Virus record (IMG/VR): IMGVR_UViG_3300026512_000010 | Span: 1-64,000 of that record | Origin: a virus | Direction: 5' to 3' (one strand) | Length of the DNA stretch: 64,000 nucleotides | Shown here: in pieces, positions 1,922-28,964 of the stretch | How positions within the stretch are numbered: position 1 is the stretch's first letter | Layout: every line of letters starts with the position of its first letter | Made by a program: the position numbers and the translations under genes | The notes under the pieces: generated by a model | Told to the model about the DNA's origin: nothing | Database searches by the model: none | The model's input: the letters and a program-made list of their open reading frames with translations, nothing else

Positions 1922-2128
1922 TTATTTTGAATTTATCGTTTTTTCTTTTATATTTTCATCGTTTTTAATCTTTATAGATGGATGAGGTATAATTAAAGCA
2001 AATACAATCAATAAAACAACCATTTCTGTAAAAGAAATTTTATCTTTTGAAAATAAATACATAACCCCACATAATATAATTGTTATCATTATATAGAACG
2101 CTACATTTATAATTGTTGCTTCTTGCAT
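1922..2128 (-). CDS. Small hydrophobic membrane protein
   Basis: Two hydrophobic segments; ATGA-type junction with the ligase gene. Confidence 0.35.
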   Translation of the reverse strand: MQEATIINVAFYIMITIILCGVMYLFSKDKISFTEMVVLLIVFALIIPHPSIKIKNDENIKEKTINSK

Positions 2129-3525
2129 TATTTTACTCCTAAAATAGATTTCTCAATTTCAATACATTTTTCATATGAATCAGCTTCATCTTTATCTTCT
2201 CTTACACAAATAAAGCTCGGGTGTAAAAGAGCTTCAACTTCTCCATTTTTCCAGGAAAGTCCTCTACAGTTAATTGTAACAATTTTACCAATCAACTCGT
2301 CTTTATGTTTTGTAATATAGTCCATATCATCTTCTGTTAGCCCTCCAGCTTGAACTTTAATTTTACCATCGGAACTTTCGGCTAAAACTCTATTAATAAA
2401 ATTTTCATATTTTGTTCCAGGTGTTCCATATTCAAACCCTGTAATTCTGAAATCTACGTCAAAATTTATTTTAACTTTTATTTGATGATTAGGTTTTTTA
2501 TTTTCAAATTTTCCACGTTTGCTTTTTACAACAGTTCCTTCACCACCTTTTTGAAAAATTTCTTTAAAATGCTCTAGAACTTCCTCTTTTGTTTTAACTG
2601 GTCTGGTAGAAATTTCTAAAACATTATCTGCTTGCCACAAACATTCTTTCAAGTTAGAATATCTTTTATGATATGGAATTTCACAATAACCTTTACTCCA
2701 ATCTTCAAAAGGAATTAAATCCCAAGCTACAATATAAATATCTTTTAAAAATTCAGAAGGCTTTTTACCATATCTTTCTATAAAAGCTTCAATATCTTTT
2801 TCTTTTAATTTTCCCTCTTTCTTTTTAGACATAATTGTTTTAATAGAATTTATTAATCCATTAGCTTTGTATCTGTCAAAATTTTTAACAAGTATTTCAC
2901 CTGTTATAACAAATTCATCATGGACAGGAGAAAAATAATTGTGTTTAAAGGCACTTTCTAAATGTAAATCTTTACCATTTCTGGCAAAGGTTCTCATTTC
3001 CCCTGTTTCACAATTATAATAGAGGTTACAAAACATTCCATCAAGCTTTTCCTGTGACCAGACTTCTCCCTCTTCAAGAAGTTTTTCAAGTTTTTTCATA
3101 TTATAAGGAATAGCTCCCATGTAAGGAGTGATAGGAATTAAATTTTCAAAAACTTTATTTATTAATTTAGTATTAATACCTATTTTAAAATCTTTTTGAA
3201 GAATTCCGTCAAATACCCAAGCATCCTGTTCATCAAGTTTTTGATAAATATATTCTACCTCATCTCTTGCAGCATTTCCTGTAATTTTTCTAAGCCTTAA
3301 ATTATCAAGAGTATCAAATATTATGTGACTTGAATGTTCTAAAGTAATTTCGCCTTTGTTTGAAAGTTTATCATATTTTTTAACATAATATTGATAAAAT
3401 GGATTATAAGCATAAAATAAAACTTTTTTAAGAAGTTCATTATCTTTATGCTGTTTAAGTATTTCTTGTTTTTTATTTGTTGAAGATGTTTCTTTGATTT
3501 GTTGAAGTATTTTGTAGATTTTCAT
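2128..3525 (-). CDS. ATP-dependent DNA ligase (T4 gp30-like)
   Basis: N-terminus MKIYKILQQIKETSSTNKKQEILKQHKDNELLKKV parallels T4 ligase MILKILNEIASIGSTKQKQAILEKNKDNELLKRV; KxDG motif EKLDGMFC. Confidence 0.85.
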   Translation of the reverse strand: MKIYKILQQIKETSSTNKKQEILKQHKDNELLKKVLFYAYNPFYQYYVKKYDKLSNKGEITLEHSSHIIFDTLDNLRLRKITGNAARDEVEYIYQKLDEQDAWVFDGILQKDFKIGINTKLINKVFENLIPITPYMGAIPYNMKKLEKLLEEGEVWSQEKLDGMFCNLYYNCETGEMRTFARNGKDLHLESAFKHNYFSPVHDEFVITGEILVKNFDRYKANGLINSIKTIMSKKKEGKLKEKDIEAFIERYGKKPSEFLKDIYIVAWDLIPFEDWSKGYCEIPYHKRYSNLKECLWQADNVLEISTRPVKTKEEVLEHFKEIFQKGGEGTVVKSKRGKFENKKPNHQIKVKINFDVDFRITGFEYGTPGTKYENFINRVLAESSDGKIKVQAGGLTEDDMDYITKHKDELIGKIVTINCRGLSWKNGEVEALLHPSFICVREDKDEADSYEKCIEIEKSILGVK

Positions 3526-7200: not shown

Positions 7201-7431
7201 TTATAAATAATTTACATAAATATTTGGAATCTCATCAAGTTTTTCTACAATTTTTAATGGAACTTGATTGATTTCAGCCACCCTTTCAGGTGTATTAAAT
7301 TTTAATTCTGATTTCATCTTTTTAATCCAATTTATTACACTTAATGTATAATCACCCTCCTTATTTTTAATTTTAGCCAACTTACAGTAAATCTTTTGTA
7401 TCTCTTTAACCATTCGTGGATTTATTTTCAT
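7201..7431 (-). CDS. Hypothetical protein
   Basis: ORF in operon. Confidence 0.35.
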   Translation of the reverse strand: MKINPRMVKEIQKIYCKLAKIKNKEGDYTLSVINWIKKMKSELKFNTPERVAEINQVPLKIVEKLDEIPNIYVNYL

Positions 7432-7940
7432 TTTATTTCCTTAATTTGTCTCACATTAATACCACATTCTCTTAGAAAATCAATACCATCTAAATTTTTA
7501 TATTTCTCTTTATAAAATACTCTTTTTATACCCGATTGAGCTATTAATTTTGAACAGTCTGGACAAGGACTTAATGTAACATATAAATCACAGCCATCTG
7601 TAGAAATTCCAGCCTTTGCAGCAAAAGCTATTGCATTCATCTCTGCATGAACAGTGAATGGTGATGTAACCAACACTTTTTTAAGTTTTGGATGTATTTT
7701 TCCACAAGTATTACAATAAAAATTTACATCATCGCATTTTCCTACATCTTTTGAGTTACAATATGGACAAACTTCTATTTCATCTTCACAAACATTTTTA
7801 TGTCCTGAAACTGTCCCGTTATATCCACAGGAAATAATCCTATTATCCTTAACGAGAACTGCCCCCACCTGTCTTCTTTTGCAATAAGATAAGTTTGCAG
7901 TTTCTTGAGCTACATTCATAAAATAATATTCTTTTATCAT
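7428..7940 (-). CDS. cd: dCMP deaminase (T4 Cd-like) with inserted Cys4 zinc-ribbon
   Basis: HAEMNAI...LSPCPDCSKLI zinc-binding deaminase motifs. Start moved to the MIKEYYF Met (ATG 7938-7940), which has GGAG 6 nt upstream and removes the 47-nt overlap with the upstream ORF. Confidence 0.8.
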   Translation of the reverse strand: MIKEYYFMNVAQETANLSYCKRRQVGAVLVKDNRIISCGYNGTVSGHKNVCEDEIEVCPYCNSKDVGKCDDVNFYCNTCGKIHPKLKKVLVTSPFTVHAEMNAIAFAAKAGISTDGCDLYVTLSPCPDCSKLIAQSGIKRVFYKEKYKNLDGIDFLRECGINVRQIKEIK

Positions 7941-7941
7941 T

Positions 7942-8169
7942 TTAAACTCCATATCTATTTGCAAATTTAGCAAGTTTTTTAAGAGCACTTTGTTCTAATG
8001 CTCTTATACCTTGTTTTGTTATCCCCATAAGATATCCTATCTCTTCAAGTGTATATTCTCTACTTTCTAAAACACCAGCATCAATTAGTTCATTTAATGC
8101 ATGCCATTTATCTTTTCTGTTTTCAAATTCATCCAAGATAATTTTCGCTTCTTTTAATGTCATTGTCAT
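7942..8169 (-). CDS. Small sigma-70 region 4.2-like HTH protein (75 aa)
   Basis: YTLEEIGYLMGITKQGIRALEQSALKKL parallels E. coli sigma70 [28 protein letters not shown]; preceded by a consensus promoter plus upstream element. Confidence 0.55.
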   Translation of the reverse strand: MTMTLKEAKIILDEFENRKDKWHALNELIDAGVLESREYTLEEIGYLMGITKQGIRALEQSALKKLAKFANRYGV

Positions 8170-8247: not shown

Positions 8248-8976
8248 TTAAAAATCCCAATCTGATAATTTTGTTCCCTGGAATTTCTTAAAATGCTTAT
8301 TATTTTTAGAATATTCTAAAAACTCTTCAGCAAGTTCATTTAATTCTAAAAATTTTAAATAATCATACCCCAAAGAAGTAATATCCGCATTAAAAGGAAG
8401 TTTCTTTGCATATCCTTCAAATTCTTCAAGTTCTCTTTTTATTTTATCATAAAATCCTAAAATTGCTCCTTCTTTTTCAAAAGCAGTTGTTCCCTTAGGA
8501 GGCTTACCACTTCTTTCAACAATTCTATCGATATATTTGTCAAAATTTTCTTTCCCATAATAATATATTTGATAGAAAAATTTTTTACATCCATTTGAAG
8601 ACATATGTTTAGGACGGACTCTAAATGTATCCATATTTGAATACCCTTCCCCTATTACATTTTTAATTTTAAGATGTTTTATATAATCTACTGTTGGCTC
8701 TGTCCCTCCAAATTTACTCCATAATGAGTCAAAACTTGCCCATGATACATATCCTGCTTTTTTATTATTTGTATATTTTCCTAAAAACAATAAATCTAAA
8801 TCTTTGAAATAAATTCCTAAGTCAAAAATTTTATCGTTATATGTGGTTTTATACACTTCAGAACGATATTTAGTTTCTAAAAATTTTATTAATTGATTCA
8901 TTCTTGTCCCTTTACCGGAACCAGAGGATCCCAATACTAATCCAAAAGTTTCCACTACCACTCCTTTAGAGAACAA
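8248..8976 (-). CDS. P-loop kinase-like protein (paralog of the C-domain of 11796..13415); candidate nucleotide/DNA-base kinase
   Basis: Walker A VLGSSGSGKGTRMNQLIKFLETKY resembles VLGSNATGKSTRITRLIEYLDKEY in the 539-aa protein. Confidence 0.45.
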   Translation of the reverse strand: MFSKGVVVETFGLVLGSSGSGKGTRMNQLIKFLETKYRSEVYKTTYNDKIFDLGIYFKDLDLLFLGKYTNNKKAGYVSWASFDSLWSKFGGTEPTVDYIKHLKIKNVIGEGYSNMDTFRVRPKHMSSNGCKKFFYQIYYYGKENFDKYIDRIVERSGKPPKGTTAFEKEGAILGFYDKIKRELEEFEGYAKKLPFNADITSLGYDYLKFLELNELAEEFLEYSKNNKHFKKFQGTKLSDWDF

Positions 8977-10094
8977 GCATTAATTTTAGAATAGTCATAT
9001 TTTGCACGAGGGCGTCCCATTTCTTTTTTAGCTTTTGTATATTTGCTTAATTCACAAAAGCTATTTTCAAGCATCATAACATTGAGACACCTATCGTATT
9101 CAGGAAGATGGTCAAAAAGTTTATTCAAATCCGTTTCCCATCCTCTTTTCTTCCATTCTTTTTCTATATAATCTCTTACCCAAAATATACACTCTTCATA
9201 TGTCATTCCATCTTTATCTTTAAACATATAATCAATACCCCCTTGACAACCTGGCCCAGCAACAGTAAATTCATTTTCACTAAATTTGAATTCTTCTATA
9301 TAAGTAAAATCTACAAAAACCTGATAAGCAAGAAATTCACTAAATCCGGGTATTAGAAGCAGTTTTTCATATGCGTCTTTTTGAGAAGAAGCTTCATTAA
9401 CAAGATTAGCAATATTTAAATCATCTCTTGCAAATTTGACAAGCCACAGCATTCTTACAACCATATTTGGCTCAAACTCTGAAATTTTTTCGGAGTCTTT
9501 AATCTTATCAAATGCTTCTCTTACAGTCATTTCTTTTCCATTGTGTTTAACTAAATTTTTAACAGTCTTACCATCCTTATATTCATATATTTTTGGAAAT
9601 CTCCAAGTATGTTTTATGCCACCCATGTTAAATGCTGAAGTATACCAAACATATTTAGGATTAGCTTTGGAAAACTCTTCAACTACATTTCTAATTTTGT
9701 CTATATCTTTTTCATTAAAAGTTAAAATATTAAACTCTTCAGGAAAATTTAAAATTCTAAATGTCTCTGATTTGTTCCAAGCTCTAAATAAAATACTCCA
9801 AAGGATTTTTTCTTCAAAAGAAAGATTTTCGTTTTTGCTAATGTTTCTTATAAGCCACTTGCTTTCTCTATCAAGTTCTCTTCTAACATTTGTGAATTTA
9901 TATTTTTGAAAAATTTCATCTTCCGTCCAAGATGGCGGAAGTTTTTCTATTTCTTTTTTCTTATATATTTTGTGCCTTTCAAAAATATAATTGTGATGAT
10001 ATTTTAAAATATCTTCATTAAAAGTAGGACTTGCTTTTTTTATAACCTCTTTTCTAACTCCACAATATGGGACATCAGCTGGTTTTGTTTTCAT
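8955..10094 (-). CDS. Hypothetical 379-aa protein (modification-cluster member)
   Basis: Large ORF between the P-loop kinase and the dNMP kinase; no motif recognised. Confidence 0.4.
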   Translation of the reverse strand: MKTKPADVPYCGVRKEVIKKASPTFNEDILKYHHNYIFERHKIYKKKEIEKLPPSWTEDEIFQKYKFTNVRRELDRESKWLIRNISKNENLSFEEKILWSILFRAWNKSETFRILNFPEEFNILTFNEKDIDKIRNVVEEFSKANPKYVWYTSAFNMGGIKHTWRFPKIYEYKDGKTVKNLVKHNGKEMTVREAFDKIKDSEKISEFEPNMVVRMLWLVKFARDDLNIANLVNEASSQKDAYEKLLLIPGFSEFLAYQVFVDFTYIEEFKFSENEFTVAGPGCQGGIDYMFKDKDGMTYEECIFWVRDYIEKEWKKRGWETDLNKLFDHLPEYDRCLNVMMLENSFCELSKYTKAKKEMGRPRAKYDYSKINACSLKEW

Positions 10095-10656
10095 CTAAAA
10101 TTCCCTTTATAAACTTTCTTATTTTTTCCTTTCCAGAAAAATCATTATGAAATATATAATCAACATCAAAGGTATCTATCGTATCTTCAAAGGAATGTTT
10201 TTTATGAATAGATTTATCAGAAATAATTTTTATAATTTTAAATCCATTGTTTTTAACATATTCATATTCAATAGGCGTTCTTAAATCAGAAATAAAAATT
10301 TCTTTTTTATTAGGAAGGGAACCAAATTCAAATTCTTTTTGAATTTCTTTTTGATATTTTTCTATTTCATCATTTAACATTCTAACAAAAATTCCATCTT
10401 CTATATCTCTTAAAAAATTTAATTTTAACCAGACTTCTCTTGGAACAATTTCTATTTTTTCTCCTATAGAAGTTTCATAAGTAAATTTTTGTTCTTTTTC
10501 TTCAGGTAAATAATCTTTTTTCATCCATGGATAAATGCAGTTAGCAAGTTTTTTAAGCTGGTCACTAAAAGAGAAACGCTTATAATTGAACTCTTTTAGA
10601 ACTTCTCCAAAATAATCTTTACCGCTTCCTGCTCTACCAGTTAATGCTATTTTCAT
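10075..10656 (-). CDS. Deoxynucleoside monophosphate kinase (T4 gp1-like)
   Basis: MKIALTGRAGSGKDYFGEVLKEF parallels T4 gp1 MKLIFLSGVKRSGKDTTADFIMSNY. Confidence 0.7.
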   Translation of the reverse strand: MKIALTGRAGSGKDYFGEVLKEFNYKRFSFSDQLKKLANCIYPWMKKDYLPEEKEQKFTYETSIGEKIEIVPREVWLKLNFLRDIEDGIFVRMLNDEIEKYQKEIQKEFEFGSLPNKKEIFISDLRTPIEYEYVKNNGFKIIKIISDKSIHKKHSFEDTIDTFDVDYIFHNDFSGKEKIRKFIKGILDENKTS

Positions 10657-10658
10657 AT

Positions 10659-11756
10659 TTATACCTTAATTTGAAATTTTCTAAATGGTGAATATTCAAT
10701 ACTCCATTTAACTTCTTCTGGAAGCATACTAATGTCAATCATAATATCTTCAGCAATTTCGCCTTTTTTAAGCCCTCTATTTTTAGTAATAATAAATGCA
10801 GTCACAAGTTCAATATATTTTTGAAGTAATATATCTTTTACATCCCAGTTTTCAATTAAAAAATCATTAATCTCCTGTCCTGCTTTATAATCTGTTTCTT
10901 TATTGACAATTAGTTTACTTTGCATTCTAACGATATTATCATGAAAATCTCTAAATTCTTGAGAACTTTTTACAGGAAATATAATACTGTGTCTATTTTC
11001 CAAATTTAATTTTTGTTTATCTCTATTTTTTAAAACATCATAACCCTGTTGTCCTGTAAAATCATAAAGGTGCATATTAGTGCAAAAATGTGTATATTCA
11101 CCTAATTTTACTTCTGAATCAATATTCTCCCTAAGCCAATGTGTAACAAATTCTTGTAAATAAGTGAATTCGAAAATATTAATAGAACCAAGCCCCCAAA
11201 TTATATCTCCACTTCTACTAAACATATTAAGATTTAATCTTTTTTCATTGTCCACAAAAATATTTATAAGTTGGTTGCAAGGTTGATCTTTTGTGCTTTC
11301 TAAGTGATACACATACTCTAAGCTCATGTCAGTATCTAAATCAGGATTACCAATATATAAATTTGCTCTTCTTGTAAATAAACTATCTTTTTTAAATTTG
11401 TTTAACATACTTTCCATCTGGCCAAATCTATAAAATCTTTCGCCATATCCTCCTCTCCATGTTTCCCCATCATCAGAAAAATCTCTTGCACGAGGAAGAA
11501 AATGAATGAGATACGGATCTATTAATATAGAACCACTCATTACCCAAAAGGTTTCAGCTATCATAGCAAATATATTATTTTTTCTACCCTCTAATGCTAA
11601 GTGTCTTGCTCTTGGATTTTTCTGAGAAAGAACAGCATTATAAATGACATTTATATTGCCATTTCTTGATGGTGTTCTTGCCCCCTTATTAATCAAATTA
11701 TCAATTGCATTAAATACTACTTCATTTATTGTTTCACCTTTTATTTCATGAATCAT
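10659..11756 (-). CDS. Thymidylate synthase-family pyrimidine hydroxymethylase (365 aa; dUMP or dCMP hydroxymethylase-like)
   Basis: ThyA-family core DQPCNQLINIFVDNEKRLNLNMFSRSGDIIWGLGSINIFEFTYLQEFV (catalytic Cys, RS.D..LG.P.NI); about 100 aa longer than ThyA or T4 gp42. Confidence 0.65.
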   Translation of the reverse strand: MIHEIKGETINEVVFNAIDNLINKGARTPSRNGNINVIYNAVLSQKNPRARHLALEGRKNNIFAMIAETFWVMSGSILIDPYLIHFLPRARDFSDDGETWRGGYGERFYRFGQMESMLNKFKKDSLFTRRANLYIGNPDLDTDMSLEYVYHLESTKDQPCNQLINIFVDNEKRLNLNMFSRSGDIIWGLGSINIFEFTYLQEFVTHWLRENIDSEVKLGEYTHFCTNMHLYDFTGQQGYDVLKNRDKQKLNLENRHSIIFPVKSSQEFRDFHDNIVRMQSKLIVNKETDYKAGQEINDFLIENWDVKDILLQKYIELVTAFIITKNRGLKKGEIAEDIMIDISMLPEEVKWSIEYSPFRKFQIKV

Positions 11757-11795
11757 CTGAACTCCTATTTTTATTATAATTATAACTTATTTTTA

Positions 11796-13415
11796 TTACA
11801 AAGTAAATTGCCATTCTGACAAAATATCTACTGTTTTGTTGTTATCTTCTTTCTTTTCCACACAATCACCAAATAAAAAATTTACAAAAAAATCTTCTCT
11901 CTCAAACGGCGAAACATCATATAACTCTGTTTCTGTTTCTCCATTACATTTCATCAATTTCAATTCTTCAAGATGTTTTCTCTGCCCTAAATTATCTCTC
12001 CATCCTTGTGACTTTTCAGCCCAGTCAAGTCTCCTATTTTTCCCTGTTCTTCCATTTGTTCTCAAAAGATAGTGCTCTATATCATCATATAGAAAAAATA
12101 CTTCTATCGCTTTATCAACATTAATGTTTCTCTTTTTTAATGCTTCATATGTAAATACTTTGCCTCTATTATTGAAAAAACCTTCTTGTATAAAATAATT
12201 TATGTCATAATTTTTAAACATATGTTTTATAAAATTAAATCTACTTTCCTGTGTTGTAAAATCAGAAGTATCTAAACTTATCCACTTTTTAGAAGTATTA
12301 AATCGTCCTAAAATAAACATTTTTCCTAAAGAAGTATTATAAATTCGTCCAATTTCTACTTCTTTTTTAGCTTTCATAGAATAGTATATCACAAATGTAG
12401 GATCACCATATTCTTTGTCCAGATATTCTATTAATCGAGTTATTCTTGTTGATTTGCCTGTTGCATTAGAACCTAAAACATTTATAAATGTATGATTAAC
12501 TTCTTTTTCTACTTCTGGCTCTATAAGTTTTCTATTTTTAAATTTACCCAAAGATGTAGATCTATTTTTGTTTTTTTCTTTACTTTCATACCAGGCTTCT
12601 ATTTGTCCCTTATCATAAATAGTCTGAGGAAGTAAATAATTTGACGAATCAAACCATTCTCTAAATGGTCTAGGATTATCCTTTAAAGCTTCTAAAATGA
12701 TGTCTCTCACAAGTCTTAAAGCATCCCTTACTTCATTTATTTTATTTGTTGATCTAATGAATCTAAATTCTATAGTTCCTACATCAATTAAACTCATGGG
12801 ATTTATAAATGGCCTAGCTATTAAAGATAGTTTTTTGCCATCTTTATTTATTTTTAGTGTATCTTTTAATTCCTGAAAATTTTTAGCTCTATTTATATTT
12901 TCAATGAAAATTTCAGAAATTCTTCTTCCACCATCATTTCTCAAATAATTTTTGGCCTTTTTATAAGTCTTTTCATCAAGATTTAATTTTTTGAGTTCAT
13001 TTTCATCAAAGGGATAACAGGCTTCAATTATATCTCTATGATTTTCATTAACATAATTAATTATCCTTTTAATTATTTCTATATCTTTATCCCATTCAGC
13101 AATTCTTGTATGTATGTGAAAATGAGACATACAAGATACGCCAAAATCATATTTATAATGGCAGAATATTTTTTCAACAAGTTTTACTGTATCACATATT
13201 CCATATTTAGGAGCTGTGTTAATTTCAGCACCAACAGGAGGATTAATTCCTGCAGGATCAACAGGAACATTTTTATATGGCTCTTTTGTATTTACAATAT
13301 CAAACTCAGAATGTTCAAATTCCCCCAAATATGATGGAAGTGTTCTTTCAATATCAGGCAATTCTAATTCCAATCCAAAACTTATATCACTATCACAAAT
13401 GTCCCATTTATTCAT
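11796..13415 (-). CDS. Two-domain protein: unknown N-domain plus C-terminal P-loop kinase-like domain
   Basis: C-terminal LGSNATGKSTRITRLIEYL Walker A, paralogous to 8248..8976; N-domain of about 300 aa unassigned. Confidence 0.45.
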   Translation of the reverse strand: MNKWDICDSDISFGLELELPDIERTLPSYLGEFEHSEFDIVNTKEPYKNVPVDPAGINPPVGAEINTAPKYGICDTVKLVEKIFCHYKYDFGVSCMSHFHIHTRIAEWDKDIEIIKRIINYVNENHRDIIEACYPFDENELKKLNLDEKTYKKAKNYLRNDGGRRISEIFIENINRAKNFQELKDTLKINKDGKKLSLIARPFINPMSLIDVGTIEFRFIRSTNKINEVRDALRLVRDIILEALKDNPRPFREWFDSSNYLLPQTIYDKGQIEAWYESKEKNKNRSTSLGKFKNRKLIEPEVEKEVNHTFINVLGSNATGKSTRITRLIEYLDKEYGDPTFVIYYSMKAKKEVEIGRIYNTSLGKMFILGRFNTSKKWISLDTSDFTTQESRFNFIKHMFKNYDINYFIQEGFFNNRGKVFTYEALKKRNINVDKAIEVFFLYDDIEHYLLRTNGRTGKNRRLDWAEKSQGWRDNLGQRKHLEELKLMKCNGETETELYDVSPFEREDFFVNFLFGDCVEKKEDNNKTVDILSEWQFTL

Positions 13416-13879
13416 TATATCTCCTTATAGCATCCGCCACGCTTAGCTTGCATTTTCTTTTTTATAAAGTCATCAATTTCATCTTTATCTCCATCTTTTT
13501 TAAAAATGGCCAAATAGGTTCCTGACTTTTGTTGACATCTAAATTTTATACCAAGTTTTTCATAAAACTTTCTTGCAGTTTTTTCAGAAGAGATTCTAAT
13601 ATAGGGTGTATCAACATTTTGTAAAAAATGTTTTACTAATTTTTCTCCTATATGTTTTCCTCTGTATCTTTCATCAACAAATAATAAATCAAGAGTTGTC
13701 TGTTTTTTATCTTTTGTGGCCTTCTTTGCATAAAACCCTAAAATGTCACCATCTTTATATACAAAGAATTCATCAGGAGGTCTTGCATTTATTTTTGAAT
13801 AAAAAGTTCCAGCATACTTTTGACCATCACAGTTTTTCAAAAAATTCTGAATTTCTTCCTTTGAAACTTGTATTATCAT
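13415..13879 (-). CDS. GNAT-family N-acetyltransferase
   Basis: ERYRGKHIGEKLVKHF (motif A R-x-x-G-x-G/A) and C-terminal FYEKLGIKF. Confidence 0.55.
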   Translation of the reverse strand: MIIQVSKEEIQNFLKNCDGQKYAGTFYSKINARPPDEFFVYKDGDILGFYAKKATKDKKQTTLDLLFVDERYRGKHIGEKLVKHFLQNVDTPYIRISSEKTARKFYEKLGIKFRCQQKSGTYLAIFKKDGDKDEIDDFIKKKMQAKRGGCYKEI

Positions 13880-13892
13880 ATAATTCCTTTAA

Positions 13893-13923
13893 TAATTATA
13901 ATATGTTTTACAACAAAAGTAAA
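13893..13923 (-). promoter_or_regulatory. Conserved phage promoter cassette (variant)
   Basis: taattataatatgttttacaacaaaagtaaa. Confidence 0.4.
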
Positions 13924-14922
13924 TTAAATCTTTTCTATCTTTTCTTCATATGTAAGTTTAAATTTACTTTTATCAATACCAATTCTAAAATATTCTTTTG
14001 GAGTAGTTTCCCTGATGCCATCCCATAATAAACTCCAATCCACACCATTCCATTCAGGATGTTTTGAAACATTTTCTATGTCCTCGGCAAGTCTGTGAAT
14101 ATAATATCCAACGTATCTACTATCTCTTTCTCTAAAAGTCTTTTTATATGCACAGGCTACTGTTTCAATAGTAAAATTATCCACAGGAATATTTTCTTCT
14201 TGAAGTTTTTCAAAAATTTCTTTTTTAGTTACATCTTCAAGCCATATTTTTTCATCTTTTGTAAAATTATGAACAATTTTCTTTCTTTTTCCGTTTTCAA
14301 TTATTCTTTCTTTTTTGGACCACTCATCCTTTCCAAACGCAAAACAAAGCCCATGTGTATGACTTTCTGCATTCTTTTCTCCAAGAAATAAGGTAGTTGG
14401 CTCTATATTATATACTGCTACCTGTTTTAAAGCTTGTGCCCAGTTCCATACAGAAAACCTTCCAAAATGTTTTATAGGTTTATAGATAGTGTTCCAAAGT
14501 TTATTAAAATTCTCTTCAGGTGAACTATTTAATAAGTCATCAAAATATTCACTCTGAGATTTGCCATTTAGCATATTTTTATAACTCTCTACTGTCTCAA
14601 CAAAAAATTTTCTCTGTTTTAATTTATCTGTCTGAAAGGGAATTTTATACTGAGCCCATTCCCACCATTTTTGAAGTCTTTTTATTCCAGCTATTTCAAG
14701 ATCTGGATATTCATTTATAATAAGATACGCTGAGGGTAAATGATATGTTACAGAAGTTAAAAAGCAGAACCACAGTATCTGCTCTTTATTTAGTTCAAGT
14801 CTATCAACAATATAATTGCTTATTGTAATAAAAGGGTCAATATCATTAGCATATAACATCCTCTTATAATAATGAATAAAATCATCAACTCTACCATTCA
14901 TATTCTTCCTCTTCTGGAACAA
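13924..14922 (-). CDS. Hypothetical 332-aa protein (modification-cluster member)
   Basis: ORF; likely true start at the MNGRVDDF Met, giving a short overlap with the amidotransferase gene. Confidence 0.4.
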   Translation of the reverse strand: MFQKRKNMNGRVDDFIHYYKRMLYANDIDPFITISNYIVDRLELNKEQILWFCFLTSVTYHLPSAYLIINEYPDLEIAGIKRLQKWWEWAQYKIPFQTDKLKQRKFFVETVESYKNMLNGKSQSEYFDDLLNSSPEENFNKLWNTIYKPIKHFGRFSVWNWAQALKQVAVYNIEPTTLFLGEKNAESHTHGLCFAFGKDEWSKKERIIENGKRKKIVHNFTKDEKIWLEDVTKKEIFEKLQEENIPVDNFTIETVACAYKKTFRERDSRYVGYYIHRLAEDIENVSKHPEWNGVDWSLLWDGIRETTPKEYFRIGIDKSKFKLTYEEKIEKI

Positions 14923-15577
14923 AGTCCATTGTTCTATCTATTTTTTCTAAATCGTCAGGAATTACCTTTTCTATATTTTCTATTAAATTTAATTCTTTAT
15001 CTGCTCTTAAAAGAATATTTTTAGTGCTTGCTATGATATAGCCATTTTTCAATGTGGCTTTCCATTGTGGTCTTAAACCATTTCTAAAATTTATTAATTT
15101 ACCATTTGGTGCCAAAAACACAGCAGACGCAGAACATCCTGGAAATTTTTGCAAGTATGATTTGTCTCTTGTATTCTTAAACCAGTGAAACAATAGTTCT
15201 GTATCATTTTTAGTTTCGCATAATATATTATAAGAAGTTTCCCAAAGTTCAGGTGGCTCTTGAGAAATAACACCATTATGAACAATAAATCCTTCTTTTT
15301 CATTTCCAATAGGCTGAGGATAGTGAATGTCAGATGTAGAATATCTTATGTGAAAAATGGCTCTTATTGAATTATTATATATTATTTCCGATAAATCAAA
15401 TTTTTTAAGAAAAGTTCTTGGAGGAATATTTTCTTTATAAGCATTTAATTTTCCATTATAAAATGCAACTCCAGTAGCATGACGCCCTCTAATTTCCGAC
15501 TCTTCAATAACTCTTTTTATGAGTTCCAGCTCCTTAAAAGAAATAACATCTAATTTTACTCCTACAACAGCACACAT
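14891..15577 (-). CDS. Stand-alone class-II (Ntn) glutamine amidotransferase domain protein
   Basis: Starts MCAVVGV (Cys2 nucleophile); ...RGRHATGVAF...HIRYSTS...PQP...VHNGVI pattern of GATase type 2; no fused synthase domain. Confidence 0.7.
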   Translation of the reverse strand: MCAVVGVKLDVISFKELELIKRVIEESEIRGRHATGVAFYNGKLNAYKENIPPRTFLKKFDLSEIIYNNSIRAIFHIRYSTSDIHYPQPIGNEKEGFIVHNGVISQEPPELWETSYNILCETKNDTELLFHWFKNTRDKSYLQKFPGCSASAVFLAPNGKLINFRNGLRPQWKATLKNGYIIASTKNILLRADKELNLIENIEKVIPDDLEKIDRTMDFVPEEEEYEW

Positions 15578-16092
15578 TTATTCACCTCTATGCTTTTATA
15601 AATTTCTTCCCAACTTAATCCAAAAAAATTGTTTATAATTGTTGGGTAATAAAATCCATATACTTTTCTTCTATCTTTATTCTTTTCATAAAATTCATCT
15701 ATAATCTCCAATTTATCATCAATTAAAATGTCAACATCCACAAGCCACTTTGAATCAGTCGCTATAAAATGAGCATAAGGAAAAAATCTTTTTATAAACT
15801 TCTTTTTTGAGTCATAGTGCTTCCCAAACACAGATGATATAAAAGCAATTTCATGATTTTCGCTTAATTTTTCAATAAACTCTTTAGCATCTTTGTATGG
15901 CTCAACATCATCATATAAATCTTCCTTTTCCCAGAATTCAAAAGGATTTTCGTGCTCAGAAAGATATTTTTTAACATTATATCCAATACCAGCAGGAAGT
16001 TCTACTTTATGTCCTGTTTCCTGTTCATACCATTCTAACCATTTTTCTAAAGTTGGAGCCACCGTTAAATCTACATCAATTCCTATCCTCAT
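15562..16092 (-). CDS. HAD-superfamily 5'(3')-deoxyribonucleotidase-like phosphatase (dNMPase candidate)
   Basis: MRIGIDVDLTVA (DxDxT/V motif I) at the internal Met. Start trimmed to ATG 16090-16092 to clear the upstream stop. Confidence 0.5.
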   Translation of the reverse strand: MRIGIDVDLTVAPTLEKWLEWYEQETGHKVELPAGIGYNVKKYLSEHENPFEFWEKEDLYDDVEPYKDAKEFIEKLSENHEIAFISSVFGKHYDSKKKFIKRFFPYAHFIATDSKWLVDVDILIDDKLEIIDEFYEKNKDRRKVYGFYYPTIINNFFGLSWEEIYKSIEVNKCVLL

Positions 16093-16102
16093 AATAAAGC
16101 CT

Positions 16103-16660
16103 TTACACGTTAAGCTGACGGTTGTCTTCGTTTCCTTTTTCATCTACTTTCTTATATTTTCCTTCTTTATAACCACCCTCTACTCTTTTATGATTCAATG
16201 CATTTTTCTTGAAATACCCATTCCATATTCTATCCTGATCAACACCTAATTCATAGCACATAGAAAGCATAAGTTCTTGAAAATAATCTGGTATAGATGC
16301 AAGTATAAATTTTGCAAGTGCCAATGTTTCATCAATAATAGAATCATTTATTTCATAATTTTCATCAAATAACTCTACAAGCTCATCTATTGAATTTTGC
16401 ATTAAAAGCAATGATAATGCAAAATGTAAAACATCAATTATTTCAATGACAGCATTTTGTTCATCAAGTTCTGATTTTTTCCACCAAGCCCAATTTGGTT
16501 CAACGCTTTGAAGCAATTCGCCATATTCGCATAAAGCAGCTTTTCTAAATTTCTTTTCTGGTATTTTTTCAGCCCAGTCTTCTCCTGAGTATTTTTTATT
16601 AAGTTCTAACTGTGCTTCAAGCAATTTTCTAAAATCTTGTTTTGAAAGTGTATTCTTCAT
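16103..16660 (-). CDS. All-alpha NTP pyrophosphohydrolase (dimeric dUTPase / T4 gp56 dCTPase-like)
   Basis: ELNKKYSGEDWAEKIPE...LCEYGELL...WWKK...EIIDVLHFALSLL resembles the dimeric dUTPase/MazG-like family. Confidence 0.5.
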   Translation of the reverse strand: MKNTLSKQDFRKLLEAQLELNKKYSGEDWAEKIPEKKFRKAALCEYGELLQSVEPNWAWWKKSELDEQNAVIEIIDVLHFALSLLLMQNSIDELVELFDENYEINDSIIDETLALAKFILASIPDYFQELMLSMCYELGVDQDRIWNGYFKKNALNHKRVEGGYKEGKYKKVDEKGNEDNRQLNV

Positions 16661-17195: not shown

Positions 17196-18221
17196 TTATA
17201 TAATTTTAGTATATTCATAATTAATTTTCATAAATCCTTCAGTATATAAAGGAAGCTCAAATCTTTTGGCAAAATCAATTAAAACATTTTCTGGAATAAA
17301 TTTTCCATCAATTTTAGCTCTTTCTTTGTTTCTTTTTAAAATTTCATCTAAAGAAGTCATCATAACAATGGCTATTGCATTATGATTTTTAAGTTGAGAT
17401 AGCCATTTCTTTCTTGATTTCCAGCTAACATTTGTCATATCAATTACAAAATCTTTGTCTGAATTTTTAAGTCTATTAAATTTTTGTTGAAGAATTTTAT
17501 CAACTTCTTTTTGATCTTCAAAGGTTAAATTTTTCCAAATTTCAGAATATGTTTCACCATATCCTTTTTCTTTTCCGTATTCCAAAAGAATACCATCTCT
17601 ACTTAGAACTTCCAAATCTTTAAAATTTTCTTTTATATATGTTGATTTCCCAGAATTTGGAAGCCCTATCATAATATAACAATTATTATCTAATTCTGTG
17701 TTGCAAATTTTATTATGTCCATATTTTTCTTTTTCTTTATGAGTAAATCCTTTAAAAGAAATATTACCTTTAGCATCATATTCTGAGAATTCATAAAGCT
17801 TTTCATATAAATCATAATGTCCATTAATGAAATATTTTTTAATTTGTTTATCTGATTTTTGCCAGAATATCCCATGGTAGTTAATCACATAAAAAATTTC
17901 AAACGCATCAGACCAAGAAATAACATTTTCATATACTAAATTCATTAAAAAATCGATAGCCATTAAAGTAGAAATTCCTTCATGACCTCTAAATACAATT
18001 TTTCCATTTTCAAGCTCTTGTCTTGCGAGAGGTTTTCCAATATCATGAAGAAGTGCAGCAATTTGAATATTTTTTGAAGCATTGTTTAATCTTGCTTGAT
18101 TAAACACAAGCATAGTATGAGTCCAAACATCCCCTTCAAGATGATACGTTCCGTTTGGATGAGTAGCAAATTTTAATCCTTTTTCATAATTTTCTTTAAA
18201 AAGTTTAAATATTTTTTCCAT
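17196..18221 (-). CDS. Bifunctional HD-domain phosphohydrolase / polynucleotide 5'-kinase (RNA end-healing enzyme)
   Basis: N-terminal HD motifs (HLEGDVWTHTM, AALLHDIGKP, RGHEGIS); C-terminal P-loop MIGLPNSGKSTYIKE resembles the T4 Pnk kinase GCPGSGKST; sits next to Rnl1. Confidence 0.7.
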   Translation of the reverse strand: MEKIFKLFKENYEKGLKFATHPNGTYHLEGDVWTHTMLVFNQARLNNASKNIQIAALLHDIGKPLARQELENGKIVFRGHEGISTLMAIDFLMNLVYENVISWSDAFEIFYVINYHGIFWQKSDKQIKKYFINGHYDLYEKLYEFSEYDAKGNISFKGFTHKEKEKYGHNKICNTELDNNCYIMIGLPNSGKSTYIKENFKDLEVLSRDGILLEYGKEKGYGETYSEIWKNLTFEDQKEVDKILQQKFNRLKNSDKDFVIDMTNVSWKSRKKWLSQLKNHNAIAIVMMTSLDEILKRNKERAKIDGKFIPENVLIDFAKRFELPLYTEGFMKINYEYTKII

Positions 18222-19283: not shown

Positions 19284-20405
19284 TTATAGATTTTTTAAAA
19301 ATTCTCTTGCTTTTGACAATTTAAAAGTATCTTTTATAATTTTTTCTTTTAATAGTTTCTCTAAATCCTCTTTTTTATTTGCTTTCATTAAAACACTAAA
19401 ATAAGGATGCTCTTTATGTTTTAAAGCAAACTCTTTTCTTTCTGTTTGAAATTTTACTTTTAATAATTCATTCAATTCATTATACATTTTATCAAAATAG
19501 TGAGAAACTTTATTCCTTATTTCCTCAATTTTATTTCTTTTTTCTCCCTGCGGTAATTGTGATATTACATCATCTATTGTTTCATTTATAATATGTTCTA
19601 TTAATTTATTTTCAACCAAATTATCAGGACTAATTAAATGATGAAGTGTAAAATACCATTTAGTTTTCACCTTTCTAAATTGTCTTTCAAAATTTTCGAA
19701 TGGATTCATTACCACCCACCCTTCAATATCTGTAAATGTTTCTTGTCTTTCTCTTAATTCAGTTAAAGTTAAATATTCAACCTGTGTAATTGGTAGATCA
19801 TACACAAATGCTATATTTTTCACTTTATCATATTCTAAATATTCACCTGTAATAATTCTTCTTGCTTGAATTAATTTTAATTCTGTTTTTTCATATGGAA
19901 CAACAATTTGATTAAATGGGGATATTAATTCAAAAAATAAAAGTATTCCTTCTTTATAACAATTTCTAATTGCGTTTTGGTATTTTTCATTTTTATTAAT
20001 TATTTCTTGTGCCAATTTTGCTTGCTCAGAAAAAAATGTTCCTTTTGTTTTAGCAAGGAAGATTTCATTACCTTTTAGGTTTTCAATATAAATGGTTTGA
20101 ATTAAACTCCCATCTAATTTTTCTCTTGCTTCAAGTCTAGCATTTTCCCATTTTTCATCATTCATTGTAAATGGATTTTCATTATCATTAAAGAATTTGT
20201 GTAATCCTAAATAATAATCTTTTGTTTCTAAATTAATTGTTAAACCTCTTAATTCTAATGCAAAAGAATCTTTAGCAAAATCAGAATAAGAAGCCAACCT
20301 ATAATTAAAAATTCTAAATGGTGTTCCATCTACTACTTCATCTTTATAATAGAAAGCATCATTTTCTTTAACTATGTTCATTGCTCTTTCAAATAAATGA
20401 TTCAT
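19284..20405 (-). CDS. rnlA: RNA ligase 1 (T4 Rnl1/RnlA-like)
   Basis: [26 protein letters not shown] and NENPFTMN match T4 Rnl1 ([35 protein letters not shown] identical); KxDG motif [10 protein letters not shown]. Confidence 0.85.
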   Translation of the reverse strand: [373 protein letters not shown]

Positions 20406-24101: not shown

Positions 24102-24863
24102 TTAACTCCTATATTTAGATACAATTAAATCATATGTTACATAATCTTTTAGTGGCATAATAATATTTCTACTCCTAATGACTTCTCTCATATCCTCACC
24201 AACATAAATAGGAACTTGTTCTTTTTTAATATAAACACCAAATTTAAAAAAGTCTGAAATATCATTCCAATCTTTATTATATTTTTCTTTCACGTATTCG
24301 ATTTGCTCATTTGCTGTTTTAAACATAAGTTCTTTATGAGAAGCATATGCTCTTGCAAACATACTTTTACTATTTCTAATAGCATCTCTTTTTCTTTCTG
24401 CAATTACATCCACTAATTTTTCATCAGGAACAGAAAAAACTCGTGCATCAAACCAAGCACCATCAATTGGCTTCATAAAACTTTGACCAAATTGTAATGT
24501 AGCTAAACTTGCACTCAAAGAAGCAAGTTTCTGAACCCTTCCATTATAAGGGTGAGTATATCCTTTTTTATCTGGCTGAGCTGGAATTATAATTGTGATT
24601 TCATCACTTTGTGTATAACCAAACGTTGCTTGAAATTCATCGAAAATTTTTTCCATCGCTTTTACCATAGCAAATGAAAAATCATGATCGAAAGGTTTTT
24701 TGCAATATTTTTTCGACAATTTACTAAATTTGTGGCCATCAACTCTGATTACAATATGTTGATCTTTTGGAATATTGATTTCATATTGCTTTTCATATTG
24801 TTTAATTTTGTAAAGATGTTCTTTGTTCATGATTTGACCTTTTTCTATTTTGCATAAACACAA
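24102..24863 (-). CDS. Thg1-like protein (tRNA-His guanylyltransferase family, 3'-5' nucleotide polymerase)
   Basis: IVIRVDGHKFSKL, KKPFDHDF and FGYTQSDEITIIIP match the Thg1 signatures VVVRLDGRNFHRF, KPND and YGQSDEYSFVF. Confidence 0.75.
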   Translation of the reverse strand: MCLCKIEKGQIMNKEHLYKIKQYEKQYEINIPKDQHIVIRVDGHKFSKLSKKYCKKPFDHDFSFAMVKAMEKIFDEFQATFGYTQSDEITIIIPAQPDKKGYTHPYNGRVQKLASLSASLATLQFGQSFMKPIDGAWFDARVFSVPDEKLVDVIAERKRDAIRNSKSMFARAYASHKELMFKTANEQIEYVKEKYNKDWNDISDFFKFGVYIKKEQVPIYVGEDMREVIRSRNIIMPLKDYVTYDLIVSKYRS

Positions 24864-27748: not shown

Positions 27749-27833
27749 TGGCGGAGGGTGCAGGACTCGAACCTGCAAGTCTTTTCAGACCACGGATTAG
27801 CAATCCGCTCCCTTACCATTCGGACAACCCTCC
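27749..27833 (-). tRNA. tRNA-Ser (GCT), CCA encoded, long variable arm
   Basis: Reverse complement GGAGGGTTGTCCGAATGGTAAGGGAGCGGATTGCTAATCCGTGG...GGTTCGAGTCCTGCACCCTCCGCCA; anticodon loop TTGCTAA. Confidence 0.8.
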
Positions 27834-28006
27834 AAATTTAGAACACTATCCCGGGATAGTGTTCTGGGATATTTCACTTAAAATAATGAAGTGGCCAATT
27901 TCATTTATTTTTTAGTTACTATACCTCAGTGTCTATTTTGCTTCGCCAAACGACACCACCAAAAGCTCTTTAAATTTTTCTTAAAAAACTTAGAGAGTTT
28001 TTGTTT

Positions 28007-28093
28007 TGGTGCACAAGGTGGGACTCGAACCCACACGTCCTTGCAGACACTGAATTTTAAGTCCAGAGCGTCTACCAGTTCCGCCACTCGTGC
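28007..28093 (-). tRNA. tRNA-Leu (TAA)
   Basis: GCACGAGTGGCGGAACTGGTAGACGCTCTGGACTTAAAATTCAG...GGTTCGAGTCCCACCTTGTGCACCA; long variable arm. Confidence 0.8.
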
Positions 28094-28155
28094 AATGATC
28101 TACAGATAATCCTATAGAAGATACCTCTTTCTACACAATGGTAGATGAGCAATTT

Positions 28156-28230
28156 TGGCAAGGGATGATGGGATCGAACCACCAACATCGGTTTTGGAGA
28201 CCGACATTTTACCAATTAAACTAATCCCCT
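28156..28230 (-). tRNA. tRNA-Trp (CCA)
   Basis: anticodon loop CTCCAAA; T-arm GGTTCGATCC; 3' CCA. Confidence 0.75.
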
Positions 28231-28232
28231 AT

Positions 28233-28308
28233 GGTGATCAGGGTGGGGATCGAACCCACGACCACATGATTAAAAGTCATGTGCTCTACCGACTGAGCTA
28301 CCTGATCA
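28233..28308 (-). tRNA. tRNA-Lys (TTT)
   Basis: TGATCAGGTAGCTCAGTCGGTAGAGCACATGACTTTTAATCATG...GGGTTCGATCCCCACCCTGATCACCA. Confidence 0.8.
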
Positions 28309-28310
28309 TT

Positions 28311-28384
28311 TGGTTGCGGGGGCAGGACTCGAACCTGCGACCTTCGGGGTATGAGCCCGACAAACTACCACTGTTCCACCCCGC
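28311..28384 (-). tRNA. tRNA-Met (CAT)
   Basis: GCGGGGTGGAACAGTGGTAGTTTGTCGGGCTCATACCCCGAAG...GGTTCGAGTCCTGCCCCCGCAACCA. Confidence 0.75.
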
Positions 28385-28388
28385 ATTT

Positions 28389-28462
28389 TGGTATCCCCAA
28401 CGGGATTCGAACCCGTGTCAACTGATCGAAAATCAGTTATCCTAACCTCTAGACGATGGGGA
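28389..28462 (-). tRNA. tRNA-Glu (TTC)
   Basis: GTCCCCATCGTCTAGAGGTTAGGATAACTGATTTTCGATCAGT...GGGTTCGAATCCCGTTGGGGATACCA. Confidence 0.8.
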
Positions 28463-28463
28463 C

Positions 28464-28541
28464 ATGGTCTGGGTGGCAGGGCTCGAACCTGCGACCTCCT
28501 GGTCCCAAACCAGGCACTCTACCAAACTGAGCTACACCCAG
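28464..28541 (-). tRNA. tRNA-Pro (TGG)
   Basis: CTGGGTGTAGCTCAGTTTGGTAGAGTGCCTGGTTTGGGACCAGG...GGTTCGAGCCCTGCCACCCAGACCA. Confidence 0.8.
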
Positions 28542-28545
28542 ATGA

Positions 28546-28616
28546 TGCCGAGGGTAGGAATCGAACTACGACCATTAGATTTTCAATCTAACACTCTACC
28601 TCTGAGTTACCTCGGC
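28546..28616 (-). tRNA. tRNA-Phe (GAA), 3' CCA not encoded
   Basis: GCCGAGGTAACTCAGAGGTAGAGTGTTAGATTGAAAATCTAAT...AGTTCGATTCCTACCCTCGGCA followed by TCA rather than CCA. Confidence 0.7.
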
Positions 28617-28754
28617 AAGATCCAATTTTAAGGGAAATTGAAGCCCCTAACAAAATTCTTAAAAAGAACTTTATTAGAAGTTTTTATTAAAGGTGAAAAG
28701 TAAATAATATTAGATTAAAAGTCTAGTCATTTAGGAACTTTATTTACCTTTAAT

Positions 28755-28791
28755 ATTTATAATTATATTATAATTTCAATAAAAAGTAAAG
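28755..28791 (-). promoter_or_regulatory. Conserved phage promoter cassette driving tRNA sub-cluster 1 (Phe to Ser)
   Basis: atttataattatattataatttcaataaaaagtaaag. Confidence 0.5.
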
Positions 28792-28813
28792 TTTTTATTT
28801 AAAAATTTATTTT

Positions 28814-28888
28814 TGGCTCCCCCACCTGGATTCGAACCAGGGACATTCGGATTAACAGTCCGACGTTCTGCCACTGAACTATGAGGGA
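28814..28888 (-). tRNA. tRNA-Asn (GTT)
   Basis: TCCCTCATAGTTCAGTGGCAGAACGTCGGACTGTTAATCCGAA...CTGGTTCGAATCCAGGTGGGGGAGCCA. Confidence 0.8.
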
Positions 28889-28889
28889 T

Positions 28890-28964
28890 TGGTAGTCCCG
28901 AGAGGATTTGAACCTCTATTACCCGATTATCAGTCGAGCGTTCTAACCTATTGAACTACGGGAC
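28890..28964 (-). tRNA. tRNA-Ile (GAT)
   Basis: AGTCCCGTAGTTCAATAGGTTAGAACGCTCGACTGATAATCGGG...GGTTCAAATCCTCTCGGGACTACCA. Confidence 0.75.

Follow-up and report, generated by a model that had tools for sequence, protein, structure and literature searches.

Thymidine hypermodifications shield phage DNA from restriction enzymes and other nucleases, and to our knowledge the donor chemistries of the characterised pathways are few (glycine, serine, putrescine and diaminopropane). The thymidine-hypermodification system was reportedly defined by Iyer et al. in 2013. Among the described pathways, that of Pseudomonas phage PaMx11 leads to 5-AcNmdU and comprises an amino-acid:DNA transferase (AADT; gp46, the 5-PmdU glycinyltransferase, PUGT), an FAD lyase (gp47), a GNAT (gp48), a kinase (gp49), an HMUDK_hel protein (gp50) and a thymidylate synthase (TS)-like enzyme (gp51). 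The 5-NedU pathway of Pseudomonas phage M6 (gp51-gp55, gp58) tailors glycinyl-thymidine by a radical-SAM isomerase and a pyridoxal phosphate (PLP) decarboxylase, and the 5-NeOmdU pathway of Ackermannviridae (ViI, CBA120, phiMAM1) uses a serine donor and then a PLP decarboxylase. Here we analyzed a 64,000-nucleotide stretch of viral DNA, positions 1 to 64,000 of IMG/VR record IMGVR_UViG_3300026512_000010 (the window), and found a gene cluster that very probably encodes a thymidine-hypermodification pathway of the 5-hydroxymethyl-deoxyuridine (5-hmdU) type.

With a GC content of about 25%, the window is a low-GC phage contig, and its genes lie almost all on the minus strand. A nucleotide similarity search against 50,697 phage records gave zero matches, and a tBLASTn search with a 539-aa fusion protein of the cluster gave a single weak match; the contig is therefore assigned, from its sequence, to a phage without a cultured relative. 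Related virome loci are plentiful. An initial annotation had placed candidate base-hypermodification enzymes at 8248..15577. All the open reading frames (ORFs) that it named are present where it had put them, on the minus strand like every other cluster gene described below, but the cluster is longer than it had supposed, spanning 7428 to 16660 from a dCMP deaminase gene to a dUTPase gene. Over this span, the gene set predicted for replacing T by 5-hydroxymethyluracil and for the later decoration of this base on the DNA is full. The annotation had reasoned that kinases act on 5-hmdU in DNA and that transferases then replace the phosphate, which is now supported by Pfam matches to HMUD2, HMUDK_hel and ADDT; the kinases did not turn out to be ordinary nucleotide kinases, nor the unknown proteins structural ones. 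Those unknowns, a 379-aa protein, an N-terminal domain of about 300 aa in the 539-aa protein and a 332-aa protein, are real and conserved but no longer unassigned, since profile matches (HMUDK_hel, amidoligase and ADDT, respectively) confirmed that all three belong to families of the known thymidine-hypermodification system. Of the three families against which it had proposed to compare them, two were recovered, with the 332-aa protein falling to aGPT-Pplase2/AADT and the N-terminal domain of the 539-aa protein to the amidoligases, whereas no ATP-grasp was found among the cluster proteins.

Kinase A (8248..8976; ViI gp243-like) and kinase B (11796..12500, residues ~306-539 of the 539-aa protein) had been described as paralogous P-loop kinases unlike dNMP kinases, and both points stood. 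The two domains share 34% identity over 117 aa by BLASTP (E 1e-10), neither matches the dNMP-kinase families of Pfam, and both match HMUD2 ('5-hmdU DNA kinase 2'), kinase A with 104 bits (E 9e-30) and kinase B with 32 bits over residues 310-481 of the 539-aa protein (E 7e-8). Ordinary nucleotide kinases were ruled out by these HMUD2 matches and by a separate dNMP kinase gene at 10075..10656. Kinase A is 30% identical to phiMAM1 gp011, which itself scores 541 bits on HMUD2 and whose annotation likens it to a ViI protein; a homologue of the ViI-type kinase thus falls in HMUD2. Invariant in the aligned kinases (kinase A numbering) are the Walker A residues G16..G21-K22-x-T24, D83, E110-G111 and R151/R155/G157. 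The Walker A motif (canonical GSNATGKST in kinase B), the Walker-B-like Asp and the lid arginines are kept in both, kinase A being nearer the ViI gp243 type. Stand-alone orthologues of kinase B occur in related loci and in most of them adjoin the GATase/transferase pair described below. We assign both kinases as predicted 5-hmdU DNA kinases. The public gene call for kinase A uses an internal start and gives 235 aa (8248..8955).

The 332-aa protein (13924..14922) scored 64.1 bits on Pfam ADDT (PF18724), above the gathering cut-off of 26.2; M6 gp51, a tested glycine transferase, and phiMAM1 gp010, the counterpart of the ViI serine transferase, belong to the same family with 160 and 194 bits. It has 159 homologues, represents a GATase-linked clade, and is 26-28% identical to the ViI-gp247-type proteins of Ackermannviridae. 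Its E253-T254-x-x-C257...K260 aligns with E243-T244-x-x-C247...K250 of M6 gp51, and E253, T254 and C257 are invariant in 27 sequences. In the PaMx11 structure, Cys247 touches the flipped-out base, and a cysteine is the proposed catalytic nucleophile (PMC11472151); the Glu/Thr pair provides metal ligands in the diaminopropane enzyme (PMC13458397). Judged by this alignment, the 332-aa protein is an AADT that retains its catalytic Cys and its metal ligands. Directly after this Cys, the window protein has Ala where the glycine enzymes have Lys and the diamine enzyme has Gly, which is too little to name a donor. The likely start lies at 14901, where the public gene call begins (325 aa, 13924..14901).

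The enzymes that would supply the base, namely a dCMP deaminase, a TS-like enzyme, a dNMP kinase, an NT5C-type nucleotidase and a dUTPase, flank or interleave the DNA-acting ones. The dCMP deaminase (7428..7988; Pfam dCMP_cyt_deam_1 89 bits, PHROG 174 E 5e-60) is predicted to supply dUMP for the hydroxymethylase. The latter is probably the TS-like enzyme at 10659..11756 (PHROG 3676 E 1.7e-77; Pfam Thymidylat_synt 35 bits), which is 28% identical to M6 gp58 (E 2e-22) and has the catalytic motif P-C160-N as well as Asn193 in an R-S-x-D...N motif at the pyrimidine-selecting position. By analogy with Asn177 of E. coli TS, we take Asn193 to be of the uracil type. In a related locus (L007, 13828..15900), the TS-like gene contains an intein carrying an HNH domain. 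The dNMP kinase (10075..10656; PHROG 139 E 2.6e-31, Pfam DNMK 28 bits) would convert 5-hmdUMP to 5-hmdUDP. The NT5C-type 5'-deoxynucleotidase (15562..16143; Pfam NT5C 46 bits), whose gene is kept beside the cluster in related loci, is a candidate for dTMP removal, and a dimeric dUTPase (16103..16660; Pfam dUTPase_2 73 bits) closes the cluster. Counting the TS-family enzyme, dNMP kinase, dCMP deaminase, dUTPase and dTMP-removing enzyme, the route to 5-hmdUTP is complete by homology and active-site residues; the same enzyme set lets hmU phages swap dTTP for 5-hmdUTP (PMC8989533).

The 379-aa protein (8955..10094) is the counterpart of M6 gp55 and PaMx11 gp50. It matched Pfam HMUDK_hel (PF18723) with 219.5 bits against a threshold of 25, and M6 gp55 scored 190 bits. 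The family name implies a helical domain at the C-terminus of a kinase; the 379-aa protein and the 120 homologues listed of its 869 are stand-alone, as are M6 gp55 and PaMx11 gp50, both of which directly follow a kinase. In a model built from a 50-sequence alignment (pLDDT 93, pTM 0.90), the fold appears like that of helix-hairpin-helix (HhH) glycosylases, and the nearest structure is PaMx11 PUGT, which gave the top two Foldseek matches (probability 0.90-0.97, E about 0.07). The family motifs GPGC283 and E343-N-S-x-C347-E-x-x-K351 include one that resembles the E-T-x-x-C-x-x-K of the transferases. Neither the sequence nor its profile had a significant match among solved-structure sequences, the link to PUGT coming by fold comparison only, and profile-profile comparison with the AADT family was not significant (probability 1.3%), the alignment of the two E-x-x-x-C motifs being only a hint. 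In a published lysate assay, gp55 was dispensable for making glycinyl-thymidine (PMC8989533). From the modelled fold, we conclude that the 379-aa protein is a putative second base-flipping enzyme of the pathway, not an accessory domain of the kinase; our guess is that it converts leftover 5-phosphomethyl-dU to thymine. In the related 41-kb contig L001, the gene just upstream of the HMUDK_hel gene is Acb1-like (anti-CBASS phosphodiesterase; 2107..2637).

Residues ~1-305 of the 539-aa protein (12501..13415) precede kinase B. A direct Pfam scan of this domain found no family, even at E up to 1, and its profile found nothing meaningful among PDB sequences; an AF2 model on a two-sequence alignment was unusable (pLDDT 44). 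An exhaustive profile search gave 226 cluster representatives, and PF12224 (Amidoligase_2) was matched by 46 of 71 aligned homologues (best E 3.7e-13). Residues G14, E16, E18, G62, E64, R201, E216 and R218 are invariant and H100 and H102 nearly so, and this pattern of G-x-E-x-E, G-E, H-x-H, R and E-x-R fits a glutamine-synthetase-like COOH-NH2 ligase. Through its homologues, the domain is assigned as an Amidoligase_2-type, ATP-dependent ligase. A stand-alone orthologue, P0002, is 50% identical, and in L001, which carries the same genes as the window, the amidoligase (50% identical) and kinase B are likewise separate proteins. Misassembly of the fusion was ruled out, as an identical protein is recorded in two assemblies (a 64,109-bp and a 16,952-bp contig) and fusions of like kind arose independently in P0004 (544 aa) and, as GNAT+amidoligase+kinase, in L010.

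Two further enzymes complete the DNA-acting set. A class-II (Ntn) glutamine amidotransferase (GATase) without a synthase had been noted at 14891..15577, and this 228-aa protein indeed matched Pfam GATase_6/7. Across 84 distinct homologues, conservation of its Cys2, Arg78, Asn101-Gly102 and Asp125 reaches 95% or more; these residues presumably correspond to the glutamine-site residues of GlmS, onto which we mapped them. Since the protein is a glutaminase domain alone, the acceptor must be another protein. The GATase gene and the transferase gene overlap at the start of the latter. The GNAT that had also been noted was recovered as a 154-aa acyltransferase (13415..13879; Pfam Acetyltransf_10/7/1). 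Its similarity to PaMx11 gp48, the 5-NmdU N-acetyltransferase (BLASTP E 1e-10, 28% over 89 aa), indicates homology within GNATs and does not imply the substrate; N-acylation of a DNA-borne amine is its candidate role.

We scanned 34 loci collected through the transferase and other window proteins, and 80 collected through the amidoligase, with iterated profiles of the window proteins. The latter were the best 80 from an IMG/VR scan, made with a narrow alignment, in which 290 stretches encode an amidoligase relative. Wherever upstream DNA is available, down to 33-35% identity, the loci of this AADT clade all have the GATase; only the Ackermannviridae loci, which have a serine-using transferase, are without it. 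The GATase lies directly upstream of the transferase, usually with a gene overlap (4-32 nt), in the window and in L001-4, L007, L008, L010, L011 and L015-L027, and a few kb from the AADT in L005/6/13/14. Its companions vary. Twelve loci (L008, L016-21, L023-27) have the GATase and AADT without amidoligase, GNAT or HMUD2 kinase within 10 kb; L005/6/13/14, four loci on three contigs, have GATase, AADT, GNAT and kinase with no amidoligase detected; and L007, on a 140-kb relative, has the kinase, amidoligase and an aspartate decarboxylase beside the GATase-AADT pair, without a GNAT. With this decarboxylase (PanD, 161 bits, 8994..9368) encoded just upstream of the pair, beta-alanine suggests itself as a building block.

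Among the 80 amidoligase loci, a GNAT is found in 79, the GATase in 76 (the four without it end at a contig edge) and the AADT in 71, and most of the loci examined carry all four genes. Within the AADT clade, amidoligase and GNAT are accessory and the GATase is constant. The dominant order of the amidoligase loci is GAT>AL>GNAT>ADDT (54/80), and that of the window GAT>ADDT>GNAT>AL-KIN. In the one locus of this order that was scanned (L041, 7915..14675), the module adjoins a TET/JBP dioxygenase and a Ploopntkinase3 kinase, and a 495-aa protein without family assignment overlaps the start of the transferase gene. Amidoligase homologues are fused to HMUD2, to GNAT and HMUD2 (GNAT+amidoligase+HMUD2), to GNAT with or without HMUD1, and to a GATase (P0068), and P0163 is an AADT+GNAT fusion. 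These fusions tie the components to one pathway.

Several of the DNA-acting enzymes also share a C-terminal tail of the form hydrophobic-x-[D/E]-W. In the window, it ends kinase A (...KLSDWDF), the 379-aa protein (...CSLKEW) and the amidoligase-kinase (...DILSEWQFTL), and the GATase has a related end (...EEYEW). The only match among 94 non-cluster ORFs is the family-B DNA polymerase (33321..36032, minus strand; Pfam DNA_pol_B and its exonuclease domain), which ends in ...KIDINEW (Fisher p 4.8e-4) and whose orthologues keep the tail as ...KIELDEW (91% identity) and ...VIDIDEW (64% identity). In the related loci L001, L007, L010 and L011, kinase, transferase, fused amidoligase and the homologue of the 379-aa protein again carry the tail, and it is found on none of 37 nucleotide-pool enzymes. 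A TET-type clade (L036-L115) has L-x-x-[F/W] ends on 36 of 49 AADTs and 22 of 54 GNATs versus 8% of other ORFs (p 1e-24 and 2e-9), but on 0/43 amidoligases and 0/52 GATases. In T4-family phages, the C-terminus of the polymerase binds the sliding clamp. Because of this precedent and because clamp-loader subunits are present in the window, clamp docking is the likeliest reading of the tail, and by this analogy it may be a docking peptide for the sliding clamp or replisome. Kinase A, the amidoligase-kinase fusion and the 379-aa protein would then dock on the polymerase's replisome hub, most likely the clamp. Against this, no sliding clamp was found in the window when candidate ORFs (39988..40617 and 47039..47590) were searched by PHROGs and against PDB sequences.

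Taking into account the genes and their conserved residues, we propose the following route. The dCMP deaminase and dUTPase would yield dUMP, which the TS-like enzyme would hydroxymethylate; the dNMP kinase and then a host nucleoside diphosphate kinase would give 5-hmdUTP, the NT5C-type nucleotidase would deplete dTMP, and the phage family-B polymerase would put 5-hmdU in place of T. On the DNA, the two HMUD2 kinases would convert 5-hmdU to 5-phosphomethyl-dU. The AADT would flip this base out, with Cys257 attacking C6, the phosphate being expelled and a nucleophile joining the exocyclic methylene. Family membership and active-site residues support these predicted steps, that is, 5-hmdUTP synthesis, 5-hmdU phosphorylation and Cys-dependent phosphate replacement. 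For what follows, we tentatively favour an ammonia route. In it, GATase and AADT would act together as the two subunits of an amidotransferase, with ammonia released from glutamine serving as nucleophile and 5-aminomethyl-dU as the product. At the expense of ATP, the amidoligase would couple a carboxylic acid (probably an amino acid) to the amine of this product, and the free amine then formed or left over would be acylated by the GNAT. The outcome, which we infer, would be an amide-linked side chain not yet described. We favour this route because the GATase tracks the AADT clade with or without the amidoligase and because the two genes are translationally coupled. It would make the kinase, transferase, GATase and GNAT of L005-type loci a one-step equivalent of the kinase, transferase, FAD lyase and GNAT of PaMx11, where 5-aminomethyl-dU is the GNAT substrate (PMC8989533).

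Several observations weigh against the ammonia route. For all characterised AADTs, the donor is an amino acid or a diamine rather than ammonia (PMC8989533, PMC13458397). No GATase-AADT fusion was seen among the 120 AADT homologues listed (of 159), and among ten multi-domain amidoligase homologues scanned, the sole GATase fusion is with an amidoligase (P0068). In the commonest virome order (54/80), the GATase abuts the amidoligase and not the AADT, and a class-II GATase with an amidoligase is also a module in AADT-less phages such as PaP3. The minimal GATase-AADT loci were viewed 10 kb either side, so that an amidoligase elsewhere in those genomes is possible. Further, neither the sequence nor the profile of the AADT significantly matched a solved structure, PUGT included, and its donor pocket is unreadable. 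The P0068 fusion, the overlap of GATase and amidoligase genes in the dominant arrangement and the recurrence of the two-gene module would all fit the main rival, an amino-acid route with C-terminal amidation. There, as happens in M6, ViI and PaMx11, the AADT would add a free amino acid, for example Gly, Ser, Glu or beta-Ala; the amidoligase would activate its carboxylate with ATP, GATase ammonia would turn this into a carboxamide, and the GNAT would acetylate the amine, leaving an amino acid capped at both N- and C-terminus on thymine. Apart from the synthetase fold, which differs, this route follows the logic of asparagine synthetase, and it agrees with every characterised AADT transferring amino acids or amines (PMC13458397); PanD beside the cluster in L007 could supply the beta-alanine donor. 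We nevertheless consider it unlikely, as the GATase tracks the AADT clade rather than the amidoligase: the 12 minimal loci have no amidoligase within 10 kb, and in the L005-type loci, without a detected amidoligase, the GATase would lack a partner to activate the carboxylate.

The same minimal loci speak against a route in which GATase and amidoligase build a small-molecule amine, such as an amino-acid amide or pseudo-dipeptide, in solution and the AADT transfers it. The TET-type clade, with its tail on AADT and GNAT and never on amidoligase or GATase, is as expected if the latter two work off the DNA, and PaP3-type clusters hold the same two families without a DNA-directed enzyme. In the window clade, however, the amidoligase is fused to a tail-bearing DNA kinase (window, P0004, L010), and stand-alone amidoligases also have acidic-aromatic ends (...SFLDEF in L001, ...DLGENF in L007), which leaves synthesis off the DNA improbable. 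Still less credible is a cytosine (5-hmC) target, or an island of nucleotide or metabolite genes unrelated to DNA decoration; we rate either as very improbable. The TS family does include dCMP hydroxymethylases, the direct Pfam TS match of 35 bits is weak, and amidoligase homologues are fused to TET-associated glycosyltransferases of 5-hmC systems (P0083, P0118). Set against these are the flanking dCMP deaminase, dUTPase and NT5C genes, a set typical of hmU phages (PMC8989533), the homology of the TS-like enzyme to that of the hmU phage M6 with Asn rather than Asp at the pyrimidine-selecting position, and the match of kinases and transferase to families defined on 5-hmdU enzymes. Returning to the ammonia route, its combination with docking would have the GATase-AADT pair install a primary amine in one step, the amidoligase build a peptide-like amide chain and the GNAT cap it, while the enzymes ride the clamp and so couple hypermodification to the fork; as a whole, this combination is somewhat doubtful.

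Other genes of the window provide context. Between the dCMP deaminase and kinase A, a 75-aa ORF (7942..8169) with a weak Pfam match to sigma-70 region 4 may encode a small transcription factor inside the cluster. A local GC peak (0.43 versus about 0.25) is due to 19 tRNA genes arrayed on the minus strand at 27749..30064. An RNA-repair-type set at 17196..18221, 19284..20405, 24102..24863 and 54186..55724 comprises an HD+polynucleotide-kinase fusion, an Rnl1-like RNA ligase, a Thg1-like tRNA-His guanylyltransferase and an RNA ligase+cytidylyltransferase fusion, and with the tRNA array it looks like a countermeasure to host tRNA nucleases. The window also encodes the anaerobic ribonucleotide reductase proteins NrdD and NrdG (30529..31020, 31030..32874), and the sole bacterial-genome match to the transferase is a 7-kb contig (L120) binned into the rumen Spirochaetaceae metagenome-assembled genome RUG14257; together, these suggest an anaerobic, possibly rumen, host.

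To a specialist, the existence of such a cluster would be unsurprising. Hypermodification enzymes are being made into tools for labelling and sequencing modified DNA, and four features seem worth following: the ammonia transfer, the amide bond on the base, the gp55-type fold and the shared tail. If the GATase does feed ammonia to the AADT, its action on a base of polymeric DNA would be without known precedent among amidotransferases, and if the amidoligase acts as proposed, it would be the first enzyme known to make an amide bond on DNA. The literature searched assigned no product to the GATase/amidoligase/GNAT set.

Compared with known systems, the proposed GATase-AADT pair has a mechanistic analogy, and only that, in PurF and AsnB, whose glutaminases have the same Cys1, Arg, Asn-Gly and Asp. 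The chemistry of PurF, in which ammonia displaces pyrophosphate as the leaving group, is of the type proposed here. The difference is that the window glutaminase is a 228-aa protein of its own and that the acceptor we propose is a base of polymeric DNA bound by an HhH-fold enzyme. Among cultured phages, the homologues nearest to the GATase itself are those of PaP3-type podophages (L035, Pseudomonas phage PaP3, 29422..40090), in which a class-II GATase homologue (25% identity) adjoins amidoligase genes. This PaP3 cluster has two amidoligases, a RimK-like ATP-grasp and a gamma-glutamyl cyclotransferase (GGCT), and no DNA transferase; clusters of this GAT-II/amidoligase/ATP-grasp/GGCT composition were reportedly described by Iyer et al. 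in 2009. They differ from the window in having no kinase, AADT or TS-like gene and a GATase of 517 aa. A PaP3-type metabolite cluster was ruled out for the window by the absence of ATP-grasp and GGCT and by the presence of the AADT and kinases.

Ackermannviridae hold the nearest cultured homologues of the window transferase and kinase A and resemble the window in having two kinases and an NT5C-type gene nearby, but they have no GATase, amidoligase or GNAT. M6 gp51 (PF18724), gp55 (HMUDK_hel) and gp58 (TS-like) all have homologues in the window, whose cluster contains neither of the M6 tailoring enzymes. PaMx11 shares with the window the TS-like hydroxymethylase, the DNA kinase, the PF18724 transferase with a catalytic Cys, the GNAT and a stand-alone HMUDK_hel beside the kinase. 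Unlike PaMx11, the window has a stand-alone GATase and an amidoligase, and no FAD oxidoreductase (gp47-type lyase) was found among the cluster proteins. Its kinases are HMUD2 and not HMUD1, the HMUD1 type being read from gp54 of the related Pseudomonas phage M6 in place of gp49, and its transferase is very divergent, the window-clade profile not retrieving the PUGT sequence from the PDB. TET/JBP-linked virome clusters (PMC13229309; Lee et al. 2021, PMC8989533) have the same GATase/amidoligase/GNAT/AADT module; there, a dioxygenase oxidises T in DNA to 5-hmU and the kinase is of the Ploopntkinase3 type, whereas the window combines pre-replicative 5-hmdUTP synthesis by a TS-like enzyme with HMUD2 kinases and another gene order. 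Amidoligase and GATase genes alongside such clusters have been mentioned already, without a function (PMC8989533, PMC13229309), so the association is not a new kind of system, and the core belongs to the thymidine-hypermodification system as defined by Lee et al. (2018, 2021). The cluster is a complete example, fed by pre-replicative 5-hmdUTP synthesis, of a widespread uncharacterised branch of it, and is distinctive in having no cultured representative, two HMUD2 kinases and an amidoligase-kinase fusion.

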